The notes: generated by a model not told the origin, from the sequence alone. 32,837 nt of DNA from an uncultured Erysipelotrichaceae bacterium (GCA_902772675.1 CACYBN010000106.1:1-32837); one strand, 5' to 3'; shown: positions 7,418-18,303, counted from the stretch's first letter. Program-made: numbers and translations.

Positions 7418-7444
7418 ATGTTAAAATTATTATAGGTGATAGCG

Positions 7445-8473
7445 ATGTTTCTAAGTAATATATGTAGAGAATCTGGTTTTTTAAGTACTATGTTATTTAT
7501 TAAAAGCATAGAAATATTTGTTAGTATATTAATTCCTTTAATATTAATTGTATCTTTAGGATTTGAAATTACTACAATGGTATATGGTGATGTAAAAAAT
7601 TATCATAAACATGTAAGATCTATTATTTTAAAAACTATAGCGGCAGTAGTCATTTTCTTTATACCTACTATTACAAATGTTACTTTATCTTTAGTAAGTC
7701 AAACTAAGTTTAGTGATACAGAATGTTGGACTAATGCCAATACAGAAACTATTGAAAGATATAAAGCAGTTGAAGAAGCTCAAGCTAAATTAGAAGAAGA
7801 GAAAAGAGTAAAAGAAGCTAAGAAAGCAGAAGAGATGAGAATTGCTATTGAAAAGACAAGAGAAGCTGCTAGAAAAGAAAATGAGAAAAAAGCTGAAGAA
7901 GAAAGAAGAAGAAAACAACAAGAAGGTGCTGGTGGAGGTAGTGGCGGACAAAATGATTGTAAAGGATCATATAGTGGTACTAAATATAATCTCTCTCAAT
8001 ATGAAATTACTGGTTTAGCAAGAATGGTTACTTGTGAATATGGAACAGATGCTAATGGTATGAGTGCTGTTGCATCACATATGGCTAATTTATATGAAAT
8101 AAGAAATCATTATGGTAATACTGGTGGTAGATCTCTTTATCAATATATAACTACATGTGGATGGTATGCTTGTGCTAGAAAATTAGGCGATGCTAGTTAT
8201 GATAATTCACAAGCTCAACAAGTAGTAAGATCAGTTTTAGTGGAAGGAAAAAGAACTTTACCTTTATATATTGATGAATTTGACTGGTATCCACATGATA
8301 TAAAAGGAGCTACATGGGAATCATATAAATCTTATACTCCACATGTTACTCAATTAAATAATGTATATAGTTCTTCAGGTAAGTATTTTTGTATAACAAT
8401 ATCAGGTCATGATGGTAATGTCTTCTTTTATACAGCAACTGCAGAAAGATACAAAAATGAGAAGAACTTATAG
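7445..8473 (+). CDS. membrane-anchored protein with charged coiled coil, Gly linker and C-terminal globular domain (possibly SleB/CwlJ-like cell-wall hydrolase fold)
   Basis: N-terminal TM helices, then EEAQAKLEEEKRVKEAKKAEE...EERRRKQQE, then GAGGGSGGQ. The C-terminal domain contains ITGLARMVTCEYGTDANGMSAVASHMANLY, reminiscent of the Hydrolase_2 motif. That resemblance is weak and judged by eye only. Start ATG 7445 is preferred to GTG 7436 (AGGTGA plus 5 nt). Confidence 0.6.
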   Translation: MFLSNICRESGFLSTMLFIKSIEIFVSILIPLILIVSLGFEITTMVYGDVKNYHKHVRSIILKTIAAVVIFFIPTITNVTLSLVSQTKFSDTECWTNANTETIERYKAVEEAQAKLEEEKRVKEAKKAEEMRIAIEKTREAARKENEKKAEEERRRKQQEGAGGGSGGQNDCKGSYSGTKYNLSQYEITGLARMVTCEYGTDANGMSAVASHMANLYEIRNHYGNTGGRSLYQYITTCGWYACARKLGDASYDNSQAQQVVRSVLVEGKRTLPLYIDEFDWYPHDIKGATWESYKSYTPHVTQLNNVYSSSGKYFCITISGHDGNVFFYTATAERYKNEKNL

Positions 8474-8483
8474 AGGTGATAAT

Positions 8484-9107
8484 ATGAAAAAGAAATATTT
8501 ATTATTAATTGTTCCTATATTATTAACTGGATGTACTGCTAAATATACTTTAACTTATGAAGATAATAACTTTTCTGAAGAAGTAATAATATCTGGAGTT
8601 ACTGAAGATGAAGATCCATATTTTGATAGATTTAAATCAGATGATGCAGAAAATAATTTAAAAATATCTGAATCAAGTGATAAATCATATAAATTTAGTG
8701 ATGAAGGAACTACTAAAAAATTATCATATAATTATGGAAATACTTTAGAAGTAACTAAATTATTAAAATATTGCTATGAAGATATAATTATATTAAATTC
8801 TGATGATTATGTTACTATTAATACTTATGGAGAAAATTATTGTAAAAATTATGATGTAGAAATAATATTTAAGACTGATAAATTAGTTCTTGATAATAAT
8901 GCTGATAAAATAGATGGAAATACTTATAAATGGACTGATCTATCTAAAGATTTAATATTACAAGTAAGTAAGAAAGAAACTCCATCAAATTCTAAATCTA
9001 AAAAAGATAATACTGTTTTAAGATTAATAATAACCTTAGTAGTTATCTTAGTTATGATAGTATTGTTTATACAACGTAAAAGCCAAGCTAAGAAAAGAAA
9101 TAATTGA
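8484..9107 (+). CDS. lipoprotein with an additional C-terminal TM anchor, unknown function
   Basis: MKKKYLLLIVPILLTGC is a signal peptide with an LTGC lipobox. The C-terminus LRLIITLVVILVMIVLFIQRKSQAKKRNN is a TM helix plus basic tail. GAGGTGA RBS at 8473-8479. The track start 8409 overlaps the upstream gene. Confidence 0.7.
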   Translation: MKKKYLLLIVPILLTGCTAKYTLTYEDNNFSEEVIISGVTEDEDPYFDRFKSDDAENNLKISESSDKSYKFSDEGTTKKLSYNYGNTLEVTKLLKYCYEDIIILNSDDYVTINTYGENYCKNYDVEIIFKTDKLVLDNNADKIDGNTYKWTDLSKDLILQVSKKETPSNSKSKKDNTVLRLIITLVVILVMIVLFIQRKSQAKKRNN

Positions 9108-11517: not shown

Positions 11518-13887
11518 ATGGTAGATAGAGATTTAGTTAGATTACTAGTATCAATTCGTTCATCAATAGAGAAACAATTTGAATCTAACCCAGAAAATTT
11601 ATCTTTTTACTCAAGTAATAGAAGATCTATCGAAAGAGCAATTCTATCATATTTTGATGGTGCCATAAAAAGTAGATATAATCATATCTCCAATAATTCT
11701 TCTATAGAAGTAGATTTAGATTCATTTGATGAAGGTAAGATTGTATTTCCACCTGAAGGTGCAAGCGTATTAAGATTAATTAGAGGAAATAAAGGAATAG
11801 ATATTAATATAGAATATGAAGTAGCTAGAGCTTTAGCTAGTACTGGTATTTATGAGGAAACAGTTACTAGTTTCTTAAGAGGTTTAGAAGGTTGTATTAT
11901 TTCTACTCCTGATGTAAGTTTTAACAATCCTGGTATTAGATTTGATTTAGATAACTCACATATTTTTGGATTAGAAAGTCTAACATTATTTCCTAATTTA
12001 TTAAAGAATATATCTATAAAAGAACCTATATCAGAAGTTGATGTAACTAGAATATCTATAATTCAAATGGAAGAATTATTATTTGATTTATTAGAAAGAA
12101 TTCCATATACAAGTAGTAGTCTTGAAGTGGAAAAAGATCTTAATGTAATAGTTACAGATCTATCTATTTCAGCTAGAGATTGTCATATGTTTAATAGATC
12201 AGATAGAGATAAAATGATTAGTGTGATAAGAACTACAATAGCTATTATCAATGATCAAAAAGATGCTAAATATGAAAAAGAATGTCTACTAAGAGAAAAG
12301 ATAAGAGCTAATAAAAGTAATGCTTTAAATAGTACATTATTCCAAAGGACAATATTTAATATTTATGTTAGAAATATTAGTGAATTTGATGAATCTACTG
12401 ATTTAGAAAATACTATTTTAAAGAAATTACCTTTCTTAAGAGATATTATTAGAAATGATCCTCTTGTTATGGAAGCAATTGAAAATAAAATAAAACAAAT
12501 GAGAGCTATTTATAGAATTCATAATAGTAGAAATACTGAAGTCACTGAAGATTCGGTAAGATCTTTCTTAAGTGAATTGATGCAAGAAGATTTTAAAGAA
12601 CCAACTCCTGTATTAATTGATATATGTCACGAATATATAGAAGAAATGATTCTTTTATATAGAGAAGCTAGTAAAGATATTAAACCATTAATTGAAAAAG
12701 CAATATCTCTTAATTTAGTAAGTTTAAATAATGAAAAATTGAATGATATTTTAATTCAATTAACAGGTATTATAAGAATAGATGCTGAAATGAATACTTA
12801 TAGAAAATACTTTAAAGGAGAATTAACTCCAGATATAGTAGAAAGTAGATATATAGAATATGGTAATGTTTCTATAGAAGATTATGATAGAGATAAGTTA
12901 AAAGAGCAAATACTTCAAAGATTGATGTCTAATAATGTAGATATAAGAGATGTATTATATCAAGGTAATTTAAGAGAACATTTGAGTTATGATAGAGATT
13001 TATACTTAGACTTTAATTTAATTAGTAGAATAGAAGCTTCATTTAAAGATGATGCTGATGTAAATATAGATAGCTTTTTAAATGAAACAGGTAATCCTTA
13101 TTATAGAGAAATATATGAACATTTACTAAATTGTGATAATTATACTCCAGTAGATTATTTAACATTAGAAGATTTCTTAGTATATATAAAATCAGATTTA
13201 TTCTCAAATAGAGAGATGGGTTCTGCTAAAGAATATATTTTAGTACAAGATTTTGTTAAAAAGTTTAGATCTAAAATACCTGATGATAAATTATCTGTAT
13301 TTGCAGATTTCTTAGAAACAGATAAACCATTTGAACCTGATGTATGTTTAGATAGTTTAGCTCATTCTAGATTAGAAATAGAAACTGTTACAGAATATGA
13401 GAAAGTTGCTAATGATGAAAAATATTATAATAATCCAGTATTATTTAATTTAGTTTTAAATTCTGAAAGAAGTAGAGAAATTTTTAGAAAACATGATGGT
13501 GGTTTTGTTCCTCTAGTTACTAAAGTAATGATGAAAGCAATCAAAAATAAAAAGAACTTTAAATGTTTAGGAGATTCTTCTTCTACAATATATTATGTTC
13601 AAGACTTAAGTAGTTTCTTAGTTACTAATATTGGTGATAAGAATAATAGAAGTGGTAGATATAATATAAATAATAAATGTGGATATATAATTAAATTAAA
13701 TGATAGTAATAATGTTTATGGTTTAGTTGAAGTTTTTACTGATGGTACTCGTGCTAGTCAAATTTCATCAATTAGACAATGTAATGGATTAAATACAGCT
13801 AGAAAGATTAGACTAACTAGAAAGAAAGATCCTGAAGTTGATGGATATGTTCAAAATGGAGGATTATTATCAAGGAGGTATTCTTAA
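11518..13887 (+). CDS. large soluble orphan protein (789 aa), no recognisable motif
   Basis: Uninterrupted 2.37-kb ORF with GGTGA RBS at 11507-11511. There is no TM segment, no P-loop and no nuclease, protease or other signature visible by eye. Confidence 0.7.
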   Translation: MVDRDLVRLLVSIRSSIEKQFESNPENLSFYSSNRRSIERAILSYFDGAIKSRYNHISNNSSIEVDLDSFDEGKIVFPPEGASVLRLIRGNKGIDINIEYEVARALASTGIYEETVTSFLRGLEGCIISTPDVSFNNPGIRFDLDNSHIFGLESLTLFPNLLKNISIKEPISEVDVTRISIIQMEELLFDLLERIPYTSSSLEVEKDLNVIVTDLSISARDCHMFNRSDRDKMISVIRTTIAIINDQKDAKYEKECLLREKIRANKSNALNSTLFQRTIFNIYVRNISEFDESTDLENTILKKLPFLRDIIRNDPLVMEAIENKIKQMRAIYRIHNSRNTEVTEDSVRSFLSELMQEDFKEPTPVLIDICHEYIEEMILLYREASKDIKPLIEKAISLNLVSLNNEKLNDILIQLTGIIRIDAEMNTYRKYFKGELTPDIVESRYIEYGNVSIEDYDRDKLKEQILQRLMSNNVDIRDVLYQGNLREHLSYDRDLYLDFNLISRIEASFKDDADVNIDSFLNETGNPYYREIYEHLLNCDNYTPVDYLTLEDFLVYIKSDLFSNREMGSAKEYILVQDFVKKFRSKIPDDKLSVFADFLETDKPFEPDVCLDSLAHSRLEIETVTEYEKVANDEKYYNNPVLFNLVLNSERSREIFRKHDGGFVPLVTKVMMKAIKNKKNFKCLGDSSSTIYYVQDLSSFLVTNIGDKNNRSGRYNINNKCGYIIKLNDSNNVYGLVEVFTDGTRASQISSIRQCNGLNTARKIRLTRKKDPEVDGYVQNGGLLSRRYS

Positions 13888-14228
13888 TGAATATAGATAA
13901 AATTATGAACTTACAATATAGAAAAGTTCTTACTGAAAAAGATAGAATATATGATTATATAAAAGATAGTAATAGTATTAAGCAATTATCTAATATTGAA
14001 ATTTTATCTATTTTTATCGTAGATGTAGATGATCTAGATAAAGAAATACTTGATATTAATGAATTAAAACAAGCTATCATAGATGAAAATTTAAGTAAGA
14101 TATTATCTCTTAAAAACAAAAGATTATCTGATGCTATAAATAAGAGAGTAGTTCTTGAATTTGTAGAATTTCTAAATAAAAATAGAGTTGTAAAAATAGG
14201 ATATGAATTACTTGATGCAATTTTATAA
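13887..14228 (+). CDS. small acidic orphan protein (113 aa)
   Basis: TAATG overlap with the 789-aa gene and a strong AGGAGG at 13874-13879. Followed by a terminator. Confidence 0.6.
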   Translation: MNIDKIMNLQYRKVLTEKDRIYDYIKDSNSIKQLSNIEILSIFIVDVDDLDKEILDINELKQAIIDENLSKILSLKNKRLSDAINKRVVLEFVEFLNKNRVVKIGYELLDAIL

Positions 14229-14230
14229 AT

Positions 14231-14259
14231 AAAAAAAACAGTATTTATACTGTTTTTTA
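14231..14259. terminator. bidirectional intrinsic terminator shared by the convergent units
   Basis: A8-CAGTA-TTTA-TACTG-T6 (stem 14238-14243/14248-14253), flanked by an A-run and a T-run, between stops 14228 (+) and 14265 (-). Confidence 0.6.
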
Positions 14260-14264
14260 TTTTT

Positions 14265-15830
14265 TTATAATACTTCTAAATTATTATTTGGAATAGGTCG
14301 TTGTGGAACTGGTTGACTAACTGGAGTTTCATCACTAATGGATGCATTTATAGTTCTATCTTTAGCCCATTCTTTAATCTTATCAATTTTATCTTTATTA
14401 GTTTTATACATTGATACTGAGTTATTGAATGCTTCAATAATCTTATCTTCAGTTATTTGAAGAGTTCCAGCGATTGCTTTATAAGCTAAATCACGAATTA
14501 TTGATTCAATATCTGAACCAGTATAATTATTTGTAATATCTACTAATCTATTAATGAATTCTTGTGATGGATTCATTTCTAAATATTTTTTTAAATATAA
14601 TGAAATTATTTCAGATCTTTCAATTCTTGTAGGTAAATCTACAAAGAACATTTCATCAAATCTTCCTTTTCTTAATAATTCAGGAGGTAAATCATTTACA
14701 TTGTTAGCTGTTGCTACTACAAATACATCTTTATTACATTCTTGTAACCAGAATAAGAATTGACCTATTAATCTTTGAGTAACTCCAGAAGAGTCACTAG
14801 AACCAGCGGCTAAACCTTTTTCAATTTCATCAATCCATAATATACATGGAGCTACATGTTCAGCTGTTTCAAAAGCTTCTTTTAATTGTTGTTCACTTTG
14901 TCCTACATATCTACCTTGAATAGTAGCAAAGTCTAAACGATATAGAGGTCTTTTCCATCTTTGAGCAATTGCTTTAGAAGATAAACTTTTTCCACATCCA
15001 GGAACTCCCATTAATAATATTCCTCTTGGAGGTCTAATACCTTTATTTTTCATTTCTTCTCTTTTTTCTGGTGATAAAAGTTTTTCTTTTTCATCTAACC
15101 AGTTCTTAAGATTTTGTAATCCACCAAATGCTAAGTCATCTTCAATATATATTTTTTCAAGACCATTTATATCAGAGAATAAACTATCTTTAGCAAATTT
15201 TAAATCTATTAAATCTTCTTTTAGTAATGATCCTTTTGCTATCATAGTAGCTACTACATTTTTAATTTCTATTGTAGATATACCAGTAAGAATATTAGAT
15301 ACTTCTTTTACATCATTTAAATCCCATTCAATTTGAATTTGATTTTGATATGGTCTAATAGCTTCTACTACAATATTAAATATTTCTTCTTCAGTAGGAA
15401 GTGAAAAATCAATTACCATACCTTGTCTATGTAATTGAACCCATAATGGAGAAGAAGTAATAACTATAATTACTGAAGATCTTTCTTCTGCTAAAACGGC
15501 TAAATCAGCTAAATATCTAGAAGTAACATTTTCAGTATCTAAATCTTGTACATCACTAAGTACATATATTTGATTTTCACTAGTTTGTAGTTCTGTTGCT
15601 ATATAATCTAGAGCTCCCATTAATAGTTTATCTCCATTATATACTTCACCAGATACTATATTAGTAAATCCATTAGACATTGAGTGTATTTTAATAATAG
15701 AATTAGTTTCTTGACTTATTTCTTTTATTAATCCAATAGTTCTAGATTTTTCAATTGAATTGATTCCAATAAATGGAATTCTAGCCATTATATATCTTTG
15801 TAATAATTCTTTTGTTTCTTGATAATTCAT
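14265..15830 (-). CDS. classical-clade AAA+ ATPase, Ycf46-like architecture (non-catalytic N-terminal domain plus one active AAA module)
   Basis: Walker A GVPGCGKS (residues 275-282; nt 15008-14985) and Walker B ILWIDE (nt 14843-14826). Pore-loop YVG (308-310), sensor-1 VVATANN, and SRH arginines LLRKGRFDEMFFVDLP. The string FGGLQNLKNWL...RGILLMGVPGCGKS...VATANN...PPELLRKGRFDE matches my memory of Ycf46-type AAA proteins. GGAGGAG RBS. Confidence 0.9.
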   Translation of the reverse strand: MNYQETKELLQRYIMARIPFIGINSIEKSRTIGLIKEISQETNSIIKIHSMSNGFTNIVSGEVYNGDKLLMGALDYIATELQTSENQIYVLSDVQDLDTENVTSRYLADLAVLAEERSSVIIVITSSPLWVQLHRQGMVIDFSLPTEEEIFNIVVEAIRPYQNQIQIEWDLNDVKEVSNILTGISTIEIKNVVATMIAKGSLLKEDLIDLKFAKDSLFSDINGLEKIYIEDDLAFGGLQNLKNWLDEKEKLLSPEKREEMKNKGIRPPRGILLMGVPGCGKSLSSKAIAQRWKRPLYRLDFATIQGRYVGQSEQQLKEAFETAEHVAPCILWIDEIEKGLAAGSSDSSGVTQRLIGQFLFWLQECNKDVFVVATANNVNDLPPELLRKGRFDEMFFVDLPTRIERSEIISLYLKKYLEMNPSQEFINRLVDITNNYTGSDIESIIRDLAYKAIAGTLQITEDKIIEAFNNSVSMYKTNKDKIDKIKEWAKDRTINASISDETPVSQPVPQRPIPNNNLEVL

Positions 15831-15839
15831 AAACTCCTC

Positions 15840-16271
15840 CTAAGCATTAAAGTTTAAATTACTTATAATCATTTGTATTTCTGGTACATTATTATTTTTA
15901 AAAGCTTCTACAATTGTCTTTTTCATATCTTCTCCAAAGTTTGTTATACTTTGTAATAAACTATTCTTACTATTATTATCGAAGTGTTTTATCGAAGCCA
16001 ATCTTTTAGCAACTTTTATTTCATTTGATAAGTAATTAATTTCTAATATTAAAGTATTACTATTTTGTTCTATAGTATTTAGTTTCATAATAAAATTATC
16101 TAAAGAATCATTTAATCTATAATTTATTAATCCTACTATTTGATTTAGAAATCTTACTTTTATATCACCTGTGTAAGTAATATTAGAATTTTCTAGTTTT
16201 TGAATATTTTCTTCAGAAATAGCTCCTTTTTTTAAACTATCTATAAAACTAACCCATTCATAATATGTCAT
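15840..16271 (-). CDS. orphan helical protein (143 aa), operon partner of the AAA+ ATPase
   Basis: ATGA overlap with the upstream ORF and a 9-nt gap to the ATPase gene. GGAGAGTGA RBS. No recognisable motif. Confidence 0.65.
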   Translation of the reverse strand: MTYYEWVSFIDSLKKGAISEENIQKLENSNITYTGDIKVRFLNQIVGLINYRLNDSLDNFIMKLNTIEQNSNTLILEINYLSNEIKVAKRLASIKHFDNNSKNSLLQSITNFGEDMKKTIVEAFKNNNVPEIQMIISNLNFNA

Positions 16272-16453
16272 TGTCTATTCACTCTCCTTACACTTTCGTA
16301 TAGAGGAGGTAAATCCCAATCAGGTAAACTATTAATAAATTGTTCTCCATTACTATCAGTTATTTCTTTAGGAGTAATAACTTTTCTTTCTTGATCTATT
16401 TGTTTAAATAAATCATCTTTCTTTTCTAGAAAGCTTAAATCATTATTGTCCAT
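16268..16453 (-). CDS. orphan small protein (61 aa), operon partner
   Basis: Strong AGGAGG 5 nt upstream of ATG 16453, embedded in the end of the 576-aa gene. It overlaps the upstream gene by 11 nt and the downstream gene by 4 nt. Sequence ends ...SLPDWDLPPLYESVRRVNRQ. Confidence 0.55.
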   Translation of the reverse strand: MDNNDLSFLEKKDDLFKQIDQERKVITPKEITDSNGEQFINSLPDWDLPPLYESVRRVNRQ

Positions 16454-18173
16454 TTGAACCTCCTACTTGTATATTTCTATTATTATCAGTAGCTTTTATA
16501 TAATTATGATAATCTAATGAATCTAAGAAATTTATTATAGCTTTATGAGTATCTGTACTTTCTTTATACATGAATTTATAATCTACTACTTCAGCAATTA
16601 TATTGTATAAAACAGCTCTTTCATAATTCTTTCTTTCTTCACGTTTCTTTATCTTAGTTTCTCTAGCAGAATAATTAACATAGAATAAATAACCATCTGC
16701 GATTAGAACTGCTACTATTAGTAATAGTCCTATCATAACTTGAGATAAGATAAAACTAATACTAGCTAATAATAGACCGCCCATAGTAATTAGTAACATT
16801 TTAGTATCAAATAATCCAGTTCCATAAATATCGTTATTTGTTTCATTATCTATAAAATTATTTAAGTCTTGAATTAATTCTCTTTCATTTGATCCATCTA
16901 TAGTATTATTTGTCCAGTTATTAATTTTTATTTCTATATTTAAATTATCATTTAATTGATTAGTTGTTTTTAAATATGCTTCTTTGATAAATTCTTTTTC
17001 TAAAGCCATTGATAATTTTCTTGTATTAACTGTTGGTTTAACATTTTTATATTCAAGTACTATGTTACTTAAAATAGAGTAGAAATCAGTTGAACTTTGA
17101 TATGCAAATTCTGTTTCTTTAAATCTTTCCATAGCTTTAGTAACATTACCATTTTCTTCAATAATTAATCTATTTTTAGCAATATCTTTTCTTAAATCTA
17201 ATTCATCATTTTCATAATTGAATACCAACATATTTATAATTTTATCTATTTCTTGAGATTTACTAATATTAGGTCCTTTTTCTTCTTTAATAATATCTTT
17301 TAATCCATTTAATATATTTTTTTCAGATTTAGAGAAATTTAATATTTTTAAAATATTTTCATGTTGGTTTGTATATTTACTTAAATAGTAGAAATTTAAT
17401 GATTCATCATTTTCAATGAAAGAATTTAAATATGTAGACCATCTATCTACTTGTATTTCTGAATATGATGGTTGGGTATCTAATTCTTTAGACCATTGAT
17501 TAATCTTTTGAAGAATCATTTCTTTAGCTTCATTACTAAATGTTCCATTGGTAATAGCATCTAAAATAGTAACAGTTTTATTTTCCATTTTAGTAGGATC
17601 TTGCATATCTAGATATCTTCTTAACCAACGAAGAGAAGTCTCATTTCTACCTGCTCTTAAGTGAATTAAACAGAATAGTAAAGAAGTTTTTTCATCATCT
17701 CTATTCATAGCTTCTTTTAAAGCTCTATTAGCTAAATCTTTATTATCAGTTAACCAGGCACATAAAGATACAAGTGCAGGTGCTAACCAATAATTAGGAG
17801 TATCTATAATTACTTGTTCACTAATATTTTCAATAGTAGATTTTTTTACTGAATTAATATCAGTTGCTTGGAATATACCATTTATTTTTCTTCTAACACT
17901 ATCATAATGACCATATTGTTTATTAATTTCATCTTGATCCATAGTAATACTTTGTTTTGCATTAGATACTATAGTACTTCCTCTTATTTCTACCATGAAA
18001 TTTTTTATTTCATCTTCAATAGTTTTTACTGATTCTGTAACACTATTAACTTTTCCATCTACTTCACTAACATTGAAATTTACATCTCCTAAATTCTTAG
18101 CAAGAGTACCAATATTATTTTCAATAGTTTCTAAGTTAGCAGCAGAAAGAACCAAAGCTTCATTACTAGCCAT
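16443..18173 (-). CDS. orphan 576-aa protein: N-terminal coiled coil, large helical cytoplasmic region, C-proximal two-helix membrane hairpin
   Basis: Heptad-like N-terminus (LETIENNIGTLAKNLGD...VTESVKTIEDEIKNF). Hydrophobic hairpin MLLITMGGLLLASISFILSQVMIGLLLIVAVLIADGYLFYV (residues ~458-499; nt 16802-16677), then a charged tail RETKIKKREERKNYER. First gene of the operon. Confidence 0.75.
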   Translation of the reverse strand: MASNEALVLSAANLETIENNIGTLAKNLGDVNFNVSEVDGKVNSVTESVKTIEDEIKNFMVEIRGSTIVSNAKQSITMDQDEINKQYGHYDSVRRKINGIFQATDINSVKKSTIENISEQVIIDTPNYWLAPALVSLCAWLTDNKDLANRALKEAMNRDDEKTSLLFCLIHLRAGRNETSLRWLRRYLDMQDPTKMENKTVTILDAITNGTFSNEAKEMILQKINQWSKELDTQPSYSEIQVDRWSTYLNSFIENDESLNFYYLSKYTNQHENILKILNFSKSEKNILNGLKDIIKEEKGPNISKSQEIDKIINMLVFNYENDELDLRKDIAKNRLIIEENGNVTKAMERFKETEFAYQSSTDFYSILSNIVLEYKNVKPTVNTRKLSMALEKEFIKEAYLKTTNQLNDNLNIEIKINNWTNNTIDGSNERELIQDLNNFIDNETNNDIYGTGLFDTKMLLITMGGLLLASISFILSQVMIGLLLIVAVLIADGYLFYVNYSARETKIKKREERKNYERAVLYNIIAEVVDYKFMYKESTDTHKAIINFLDSLDYHNYIKATDNNRNIQVGGSNGQ

Positions 18174-18195: not shown

Positions 18196-18204
18196 ATTAT
18201 ATCA
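18196..18204 (-). promoter_or_regulatory. candidate extended -10 promoter element (TGATATAAT on minus strand) for the four-gene operon
   Basis: The reverse complement of ATTATATCA is TGATATAAT, 22 nt upstream of ATG 18173, with AGGAAGTGA in between. Confidence 0.45.
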
Positions 18205-18303
18205 TTGTTTATATTGATTTAAAAAGTTAATTAAATAAAAAGTGTAAATAGTTAATACTAGTAATGGGGGTTAATTTTTAGTATAATTAAATTGGTGATG
18301 AAG

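Follow-up and report, generated by a model that had tools for sequence, protein, structure and literature searches.

An uncultured Erysipelotrichaceae bacterium carries, within the 32,837-nucleotide (nt) stretch of DNA analysed here (GCA_902772675.1, CACYBN010000106.1:1-32837; hereafter the window), four adjoining genes, A to D, that are inherited together as a unit across five bacterial phyla. By analogy with known systems we tentatively propose that the four genes form one membrane-associated AAA+ machine, part of a widespread cassette without earlier description, in which the ATPase D would remodel or unfold the membrane-anchored protein A, while B and C would act as adaptors; this reading may well hold, yet falls somewhat short of being probable. 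The genes, as open reading frames (ORFs) with product lengths in amino acids (aa), are:

16443-18173, minus strand: gene A, ORF of 576 aa
16268-16453, minus strand: gene B, ORF of 61 aa
15840-16271, minus strand: gene C, ORF of 143 aa
14265-15830, minus strand: gene D, ORF of 521 aa

A preliminary description of this DNA had named four ORFs of these lengths and positions, and the ORF listing returned exactly these, all on the minus strand. The junctions are likewise as described there: the overlap is 11 nt between A and B and 4 nt (ATGA) between B and C, and the 9-nt gap between C and D contains GGAGGAG. Shine-Dalgarno sequences are present with GGAGG 6 nt 5' of the B ATG and AGGAAG upstream of A. 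The suggestion of a single compact operon is borne out by these tight junctions and by the recurrence of the gene order in other genomes.

Scanning one genome per GTDB species identified 128 relatives, and the best 80 of these 128 loci, together with further loci fetched, gave the 85 loci compared here. A D homologue (45-76% identity) lies on the same strand 550-1300 bp downstream of A in 82 of the 85, and the three loci without D all end at contig edges. Between A and D there is in every case a C-like ORF, along with a small ORF whose end carries a B-type motif. Identities of A and of D to the window proteins correlate across loci (Spearman 0.74, p = 9e-15). Since the same gene order is found in 82 of 85 independent loci, the arrangement goes far beyond chance. 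It had been foreseen that ATPase homologues elsewhere might show no linkage to the three partners; in these loci, drawn from five phyla, the linkage is present. The window itself conforms to the cassette definition, with A (DDEKTSL-type core, C-terminal hairpin) followed on the same strand by the B peptide, the C bundle and the D ATPase. In our classification the cassette consists of a classical AAA+ unfoldase together with a membrane-anchored partner and adaptors dedicated to it, and all of these partners come from uncharacterised families.

The hosts belong to Bacillota, Pseudomonadota, Actinomycetota, Spirochaetota and Fusobacteriota. They include metagenome-assembled genomes of uncultured gut Bacilli and 'Tenericutes', Clostridium, Ruminiclostridium hungatei and Lachnospiraceae, further Paenibacillus, Cohnella, Neobacillus and Enterococcus plantarum, as well as Veillonella, Selenomonas, Brachyspira, Bifidobacterium leontopitheci, Achromobacter, Comamonas, Paenalcaligenes and Fusobacterium vincentii. 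Mobile carriers are two small Komagataeibacter plasmids (26 kb and 38 kb) and the Streptococcus satellite phage Javan368. In RefSeq every component is labelled 'hypothetical protein' except D, which is an 'AAA family ATPase', and no published description of the cassette was found in the literature on Ycf46, AAA+ anti-phage and Cdc48 proteins, tandem or inactive AAA proteins and membrane remodelling. That only the ATPase can be assigned to a family had been noted before and agrees with our searches: hidden Markov model (HMM) scans of A, B and C against Pfam, NCBIfam, PADLOC and PHROGs gave nothing above noise, and profile searches of A and C against PDB sequences were equally empty. A membership of the three partners in well-characterised housekeeping families, which the preliminary description had considered as an outcome against an undescribed system, was therefore not what these libraries returned.

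Judged by its sequence, D is a two-domain classical-clade AAA+ protein with all catalytic and pore-loop motifs intact. The two domains are:

14637..15020, minus strand: D residues 271-398, AAA module, from the PF00004 match and motif inspection
15141..15830, minus strand: D residues 1-230, non-catalytic N-domain, Walker A absent, outside the PF00004 match

The PF00004 match (E 1.8e-30) scores 106.5 bits against a cut-off of 21.2. Within the module, Walker A is GVPGCGKS at 275-282 (K281), Walker B is ILWIDE at 330-335 (E335), the pore loop YVG occupies 308-310, sensor 1 is ATAN at 373-376 and the arginines 387 and 390 lie in RKGRFD at 387-392, so that each of the features on which the classical-clade assignment had first been based was recovered. 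D would form a hexameric ring with ATP-driven threading of substrate. The N-domain has only a faint Sigma54_activ_2 match at residues 81-137, is conserved over its full length in homologues and is possibly a degenerate AAA-like fold. The best solved relatives of D are the D2 rings of VAT, p97 and Cdc48, VAT and p97 being unfoldases. Every curated NCBIfam model that D hits, CDC48, PAN, FtsH, CdvC and IteA among them, matches the AAA module only and scores far below its cut-off. Over its full length D matches phrog_8638, a family of unassigned function (2.4e-99).

Proteins resembling D also occur in phages. Phage records H7-H30, for example KU245542.1:23790-25367, encode full-length D-like two-domain ATPases with 27% identity in the PaMx31/SM1 group of lytic Pseudomonas phages, and mycobacteriophage homologues with 31% identity match only D residues 119-512. 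These phage ATPases (27-31% identity) match phrog_8638 and none is accompanied by an A homologue, which indicates that the ATPase architecture is wider in distribution than the cassette.

A is the sole membrane protein of the four, since hydrophobic segments are absent from B, C and D. Its parts are:

17868..18173, minus strand: A residues 1-102, the long helices H3-29 and H38-102, heptad-like and highly conserved, with invariant alignment columns
16959..17843, minus strand: A residues 111-405, helical-repeat core with the invariant DDEKTSL motif at 159-165
16668..16805, minus strand: A residues 457-502, membrane hairpin of two helices (in the model 457-475 and from 479 on) joined by a loop of about 3 residues
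16518..16667, minus strand: A residues 503-552, long (about 50 residues) cytoplasmic helix that prolongs the second membrane helix and contains the conserved NIIAEVVDY motif

The family is large and uniform in size: 312 close homologues are nearly all 560-620 aa long, and a profile search among 1.84 billion proteins returned 828 cluster representatives at 50% identity. The AlphaFold2 model (predicted local distance difference test, pLDDT, 78.9; predicted template modelling score, pTM, 0.65) is wholly helical apart from a small beta hairpin between the core and the membrane hairpin, and its pLDDT falls below 60 at residues 1-50. The conserved N-terminal helices are probably a coiled coil or interaction surface. 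The hydrophobic stretch 457-502 is continuous over 46 residues and the only one in the protein; the predicted helices concur with a two-helix hairpin, in keeping with the earlier view of A as a protein with two transmembrane (TM) segments. The net charge of the flanks is -4 before and +4 after the hairpin, and with an acidic flank in front and a basic flank behind, both termini should be cytoplasmic. A is thus predicted to be held at the cytoplasmic face of the membrane by this hairpin, in which alignment and hydropathy reveal no conserved polar residues. Compared with PDB and BFVD by Foldseek, the A model found no match with E <0.001, the top ones being generic TPR, coiled-coil and helical-bundle proteins. 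The resemblance of the core to TPR solenoids is weak and non-significant (E 0.07-0.4), and the fold resemblance of A to the alpha-pore-forming toxin AhlB is weak too (E 0.15-0.4).

The two small genes had been described as orphans, a label that no longer applies to either. B has a variable N-terminus and a conserved C-terminal peptide, is already annotated as a gene in public assemblies and has equivalent small ORFs in all phyla that carry the cassette. The peptide is:

16271..16327, minus strand: B residues 43-61, LPDWDLPPLYESVRRVNRQ, with the family motif [LF]PxW[DN][LIV]xPP...[VI][RK]R

In 2.3 million six-frame residues of cassette loci the strict pattern gave 71 matches, of which 70 fall between A and D, that is, at the expected place in 70 loci. 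Loci missed by the strict pattern carry slight variants, such as LPDWDLPPLY in the window. One sublineage has A proteins with the peptide fused on at the C-terminal end (P0045, P0046, P0050, P0060 and P0100, forms of 611-620 aa), which ties B to A and suggests that it works with A. A programmed frameshift from A into B was considered and rejected, because B lies in the +1 frame, has its own strong Shine-Dalgarno sequence and ATG and is a separate gene in all other phyla; for the same reasons the fusion of the one sublineage is derived.

Several loci of Clostridia, Enterococcus and Allobaculum have an enlarged B with one or two zinc-ribbon modules (PF13240, 6e-5) at the N-terminus, preceding the conserved peptide (L071:7033-7524, L073:8795-9499, L076:6113-6316 and L043:8741-9091). 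Basic-then-hydrophobic C-terminal tails were also seen, as ...VRRVNRQ or ...VKRVRRKI on B (window 16271-16291), as ...RRRNILL or ...RRRVLF on C (L068, L072, L075, L078, L080, L082 and L085) and as ...KTRKVLV on D (L043-L055). The recurrence of such tails on B, C and D may point to a common docking or membrane-binding element.

C is a conserved family of 614 homologues with an invariant N-terminal (M)TYxEW in the family alignments; in the alignment of C-like ORFs between A and D, members of 140-200 aa start with ...TYxEW. Its AlphaFold2 model is a compact helical bundle of high confidence (pLDDT 91.1, pTM 0.85). Foldseek gave no fold match to PDB with E <0.1, and syntaxin- and Habc-like bundles appear only at E >=1.

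Most cassettes outside the clade of the window carry a fifth gene, Z, found on the same strand in 53 loci. Its product of about 158 aa starts MP[RK]PIL and has invariant C91, H100, H111 and E138 (KCYLGxPYEVH...HYK...FIEVY), so it could be a small enzyme or metal-binding factor as judged from this pattern. No relative was found by HMM scans of Pfam and PADLOC or by profile search of PDB, and the Z motif is absent from the entire window and from L001-L025. Z usually lies directly upstream of A or downstream of D, though other genes stand between it and D in a few loci, for example L045, L046 and L051. Examples from L026-L085 are:

L028:6495-6968, gene Z
L075:4089-4568, gene Z
L084:13775-14257, gene Z

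A near-C-terminal D[RY][ST]G motif is present in C wherever Z is present and missing from C of the gut Bacilli clade to which the window belongs. The joint absence may reflect loss of two interacting features. As the loss of Z and of the motif amounts to a single phylogenetic event, it gives only a hint that Z acts together with C.

For transcription of the four genes two signals can be considered:

18196..18223, minus strand: promoter-like TTTAAA-16-TGaTATAAT (extended -10), a consensus match about 22 nt upstream of the A start
14233-14258, strand-neutral: hairpin, probably a terminator, whose A/U-rich stem of 11 bp closes a 4-nt loop and is followed by a U8 tail

The extended -10 reported upstream of A is indeed present as a sequence match at that site, but such matches are no commoner than chance: 31 were found across the region against 34.9 expected from shuffles of this DNA with 25% G+C. 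As consensus matches do not exceed chance in so AT-rich a region, a promoter upstream of A is plausible and no more. The downstream hairpin, also reported before, was recovered with a predicted folding energy of -8.9 kcal/mol (z = -3.6). It lies between D and a convergent ORF of 113 aa, and with its U/A run it is probably a bidirectional intrinsic terminator; its G-C pairs were too few for a rule-based terminator scan to pick it up. An Rfam scan of the window found no RNA elements.

The roles of A, B and C as anchor, substrate and adaptors are those we infer by analogy with AAA+ systems of known function. In the proposed mechanism a D hexamer would thread, and thereby unfold, extract, disassemble or recycle, A oligomers at the inner face of the membrane. 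These oligomers would be built through the conserved N-terminal coiled coil of A, where D would probably also engage its substrate. B might be a detachable recruitment or regulatory peptide that docks on the helical-repeat core of A or on D, perhaps on its N-domain, and C a helical-bundle adaptor or regulator of D. Z, where it occurs, would play an accessory part and might be an enzyme. Among the gut Bacilli of the window's lineage, the module behaves as a cellular function inherited stably, such as membrane maintenance or remodelling or the turnover of a membrane-bound scaffold.

The genomic context in the clade of the window agrees with such a function. Here the cassette occupies one chromosomal site, with fhs divergent from A, gatCAB beyond it and a thioredoxin-like gene convergent with D, a synteny that holds in L004-L012, L014-L018, L021 and L088. 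Across the syntenic loci the identities are 60-78% for FTHFS, 46-75% for A and 60-76% for D. The fixed site and a divergence like that of FTHFS indicate that the cassette has been inherited vertically at about housekeeping pace in this clade. The flanks are ordinary as well: among 146 flanking proteins of 40 loci MFS, TetR, zinc ribbon, ETF, MCP and ABC are the families met most often, while integrase, transposase, restriction-modification and defence families are not enriched. In view of site, divergence and flanks, the module does not behave as mobile immunity in the gut Bacilli lineage of the window, and its character there appears cellular rather than defensive.

Several observations weigh against a membrane-associated machine of this kind. 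Outside the clade of the window the cassette is sporadic, with sites that differ even among Paenibacillus species, and copies exist on plasmids and a phage satellite; this sporadic, mobile-borne pattern suits an accessory trait such as defence equally well. Furthermore, A, B, C and Z have no HMM-level similarity to PspA, ESCRT-III, SNAREs or SNAPs, and the models of A and C have no fold-level match to them, so the mechanism rests on analogy. A bolder form of the proposal, that the cassette is an ancient, so far overlooked AAA+-powered machine for membrane remodelling or membrane-scaffold recycling, composed of the families A, B, C and Z for which no relatives could be detected, and an independently arisen functional counterpart of ESCRT-III/Vps4 or SNARE/NSF that became a fixed chromosomal gene set in one lineage of gut Bacilli with reduced genomes, we consider doubtful.

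An alternative is an anti-phage or abortive-infection system, in which A would be a membrane-disrupting effector checked or triggered by D, with B, C and Z as sensors or adaptors. The patchy distribution of the cassette across five phyla and between species within genera would fit, as would its mobile carriers: the complete cassette lies at the cargo end of Javan368, opposite the integrase, and of the two Komagataeibacter plasmids the 26-kb one, the sole one examined, has insertion sequence elements and toxin-antitoxin genes alongside. A gene for a VirD4/TraG coupling protein directly upstream of A in L019, the partial matches of D to IetA models and the faint likeness of the hairpin-anchored, coiled-coil protein A to AhlB-type pore formers point the same way. 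However, the matches of D to IetA and IteA models concern the generic AAA domain only, and no IetS protease accompanies it. Searched with A, B, C and Z from the window, R. hungatei, Achromobacter and Javan368, PADLOC-DB 2.0 gave no significant match, the two faint ones (R. hungatei C, E ~0.01) being at chance level. A has no match in the 2.9 million contigs of IMG/VR and occurs in only 1 of 50,697 phage records. The unremarkable flanks described above also speak against it. The single chromosomal site and the housekeeping-rate divergence in the clade of the window would be unusual for an immune gene, and all components, the putative effector included, are strongly conserved. The preliminary description had left a membrane machine and a defence module side by side; the former stands as our tentative preference, while the latter has lost ground and now seems unlikely.

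The cassette might instead be the core of, or an accessory to, an apparatus for protein export or toxin handling, the AAA+ protein unfolding cargo and A oligomers forming a conduit through the membrane. This idea derives from the Lachnospiraceae- and Oscillospiraceae-type loci L043, L045, L051, L053 and L055 (for example L045:3320-15437), where the cassette is embedded in a longer same-strand operon whose upstream genes encode a zinc-ribbon/TM protein (about 300 aa) and a HerA/FtsK-like ATPase (about 890 aa; PF01935, 6e-9). In L043, L045, L051 and L053 the genes after D code for variable, large and highly acidic proteins of 320-1080 aa, and next come ORFs of about 155-170 aa; Z is found still further on in L045, L051 and L053. 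The arrangement recalls polymorphic toxin-immunity pairs. These extra genes are missing from the window and from most loci, though, and no toxin domain was recognised in the acidic proteins. The sole membrane element of A is a hairpin without conserved polar residues, and no component matches a secretion-system family; a role in export or toxin handling seems quite improbable. Finally, that the ORFs cluster by chance, or make up an orphan operon of one lineage lacking wider significance, would be conceivable in a genome of about 25% G+C where long spurious ORFs and promoter-like matches are common, but can be dismissed given the homologues of all four products in the same order in loci of five phyla and the confident models of A and C.

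Returning to a membrane-associated AAA+ machine, the closest parallel comes from comparative genomics, which found tandem inactive-plus-active classical AAA+ proteins next to PspA and membrane-anchored or 'other coiled-coil' proteins (PMC11237479). D has the same layout of a non-catalytic N-domain and one active classical AAA module, and in both cases the ATPase is encoded beside alpha-helical, coiled-coil, membrane-proximal partners. The cassette differs in that A, B, C and Z have no PspA_IM30 or Snf7 match in Pfam (E up to 0.1) and the A and C models no PspA, Vipp1 or ESCRT-III fold match, and PMC11237479 contains no description of the B peptide, C or Z.

With ESCRT-III/Vps4 and the archaeal CdvB/CdvC the cassette would share, by analogy, a classical-clade AAA+ protein with an aromatic pore loop working on a helical polymer bound to the membrane. 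The recruitment handle could in both cases be a short C-terminal peptide that contains proline, MIM2 there and LPxWDLxPP here. However, D lacks a MIT domain and reaches 90.9 bits with the CdvC model against a cut-off of 650, in the AAA region only, while A is hairpin-anchored, 576 aa long and not of the ESCRT-III fold. Without ESCRT-III fold and MIT domain, the cassette is not an ESCRT-III/Vps4 system. NSF, alpha-SNAP and SNAREs likewise combine an AAA+ protein of the two-ring type and an all-helical adaptor on membrane-anchored coiled-coil proteins, but there is no sequence or significant fold similarity, the domain order is another one and the cassette is bacterial. With the defence system IetAS (Gao_Iet) the likeness lies in the AAA module of D, which matches the IetA/IteA models (PADLOC 2e-32; NCBIfam 90.1 bits); the latter score compares with a cut-off of 510 and the match is confined to D residues 251-501. 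The IetS serine protease was not found in the operon or among its neighbours. With a score so far below the cut-off and no protease, the cassette is not IetAS.

The preliminary description had called D Ycf46-like. Ycf46, an AAA protein of plastids and cyanobacteria, is some 500 aa long, and in it an N-domain of about 230 aa precedes a single AAA module at the C-terminal end. D, with its AAA module confined to 271-398 and no Walker A in residues 1-230, fits this layout and can in this architectural sense be called Ycf46-like. Ycf46 is not known to have A, B or C partners.

If our proposal is correct, the cassette would represent a new means of tying an unfoldase that resembles Cdc48/Vps4 to the cytoplasmic side of the bacterial membrane, through partners that no database recognises, and the short conserved peptide LPxWDLxPP...RR would be its likely recruitment code. 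Four uncharacterised families would then join the adaptors and substrates of AAA+ proteins: A (828 representatives at 50% identity), C (over 600 homologues), B and Z. If the function were defence instead, the cassette would be a new system with a membrane effector gated by an AAA+ protein. Either outcome would give a function to genes that RefSeq lists as 'hypothetical protein', and cultured carriers are available in Ruminiclostridium hungatei DSM 14427, several Paenibacillus species, Enterococcus plantarum LMG 26214 and Achromobacter denitrificans NBRC 15125.

As to the neighbourhood, annotation of the window flanks agrees with the earlier statement that the adjoining genes are housekeeping genes apart from one convergent orphan pair. 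This pair (11518-14228, plus strand) consists of ORFs of 789 aa and 113 aa, co-oriented with a 1-base overlap. Scans of Pfam, NCBIfam, PADLOC and PHROGs left it unmatched, and the other cassette loci contain no homologue. Relatives, for example L004, have the D stop about 55 nt from the thioredoxin-like gene; the absence of the pair from the syntenic site in relatives indicates a 2.7-kb species-specific insertion, the sole local difference. For the same reasons the pair was ruled out as a part of the system. When metagenomes were scanned with the adjacent FTHFS as seed, to see whether all clade members with this synteny have the cassette, most hits were distant FTHFS that lack the synteny.

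In the uncultured 'Tenericutes' genome of L019, the coupling protein encoded directly upstream of A (L019:857-3334) is of the VirD4/TraG type of type IV systems (PF02534, 1.9e-52), and this copy of the cassette may sit on a conjugative element. Elsewhere in the window two overlapping ORFs of 345 aa and 232 aa (7436-9107, plus strand) belong to no Pfam family and have counterparts with 36-68% identity at the syntenic position in L004, L005 and L007; from this sequence comparison they are taken as further lineage-specific genes.

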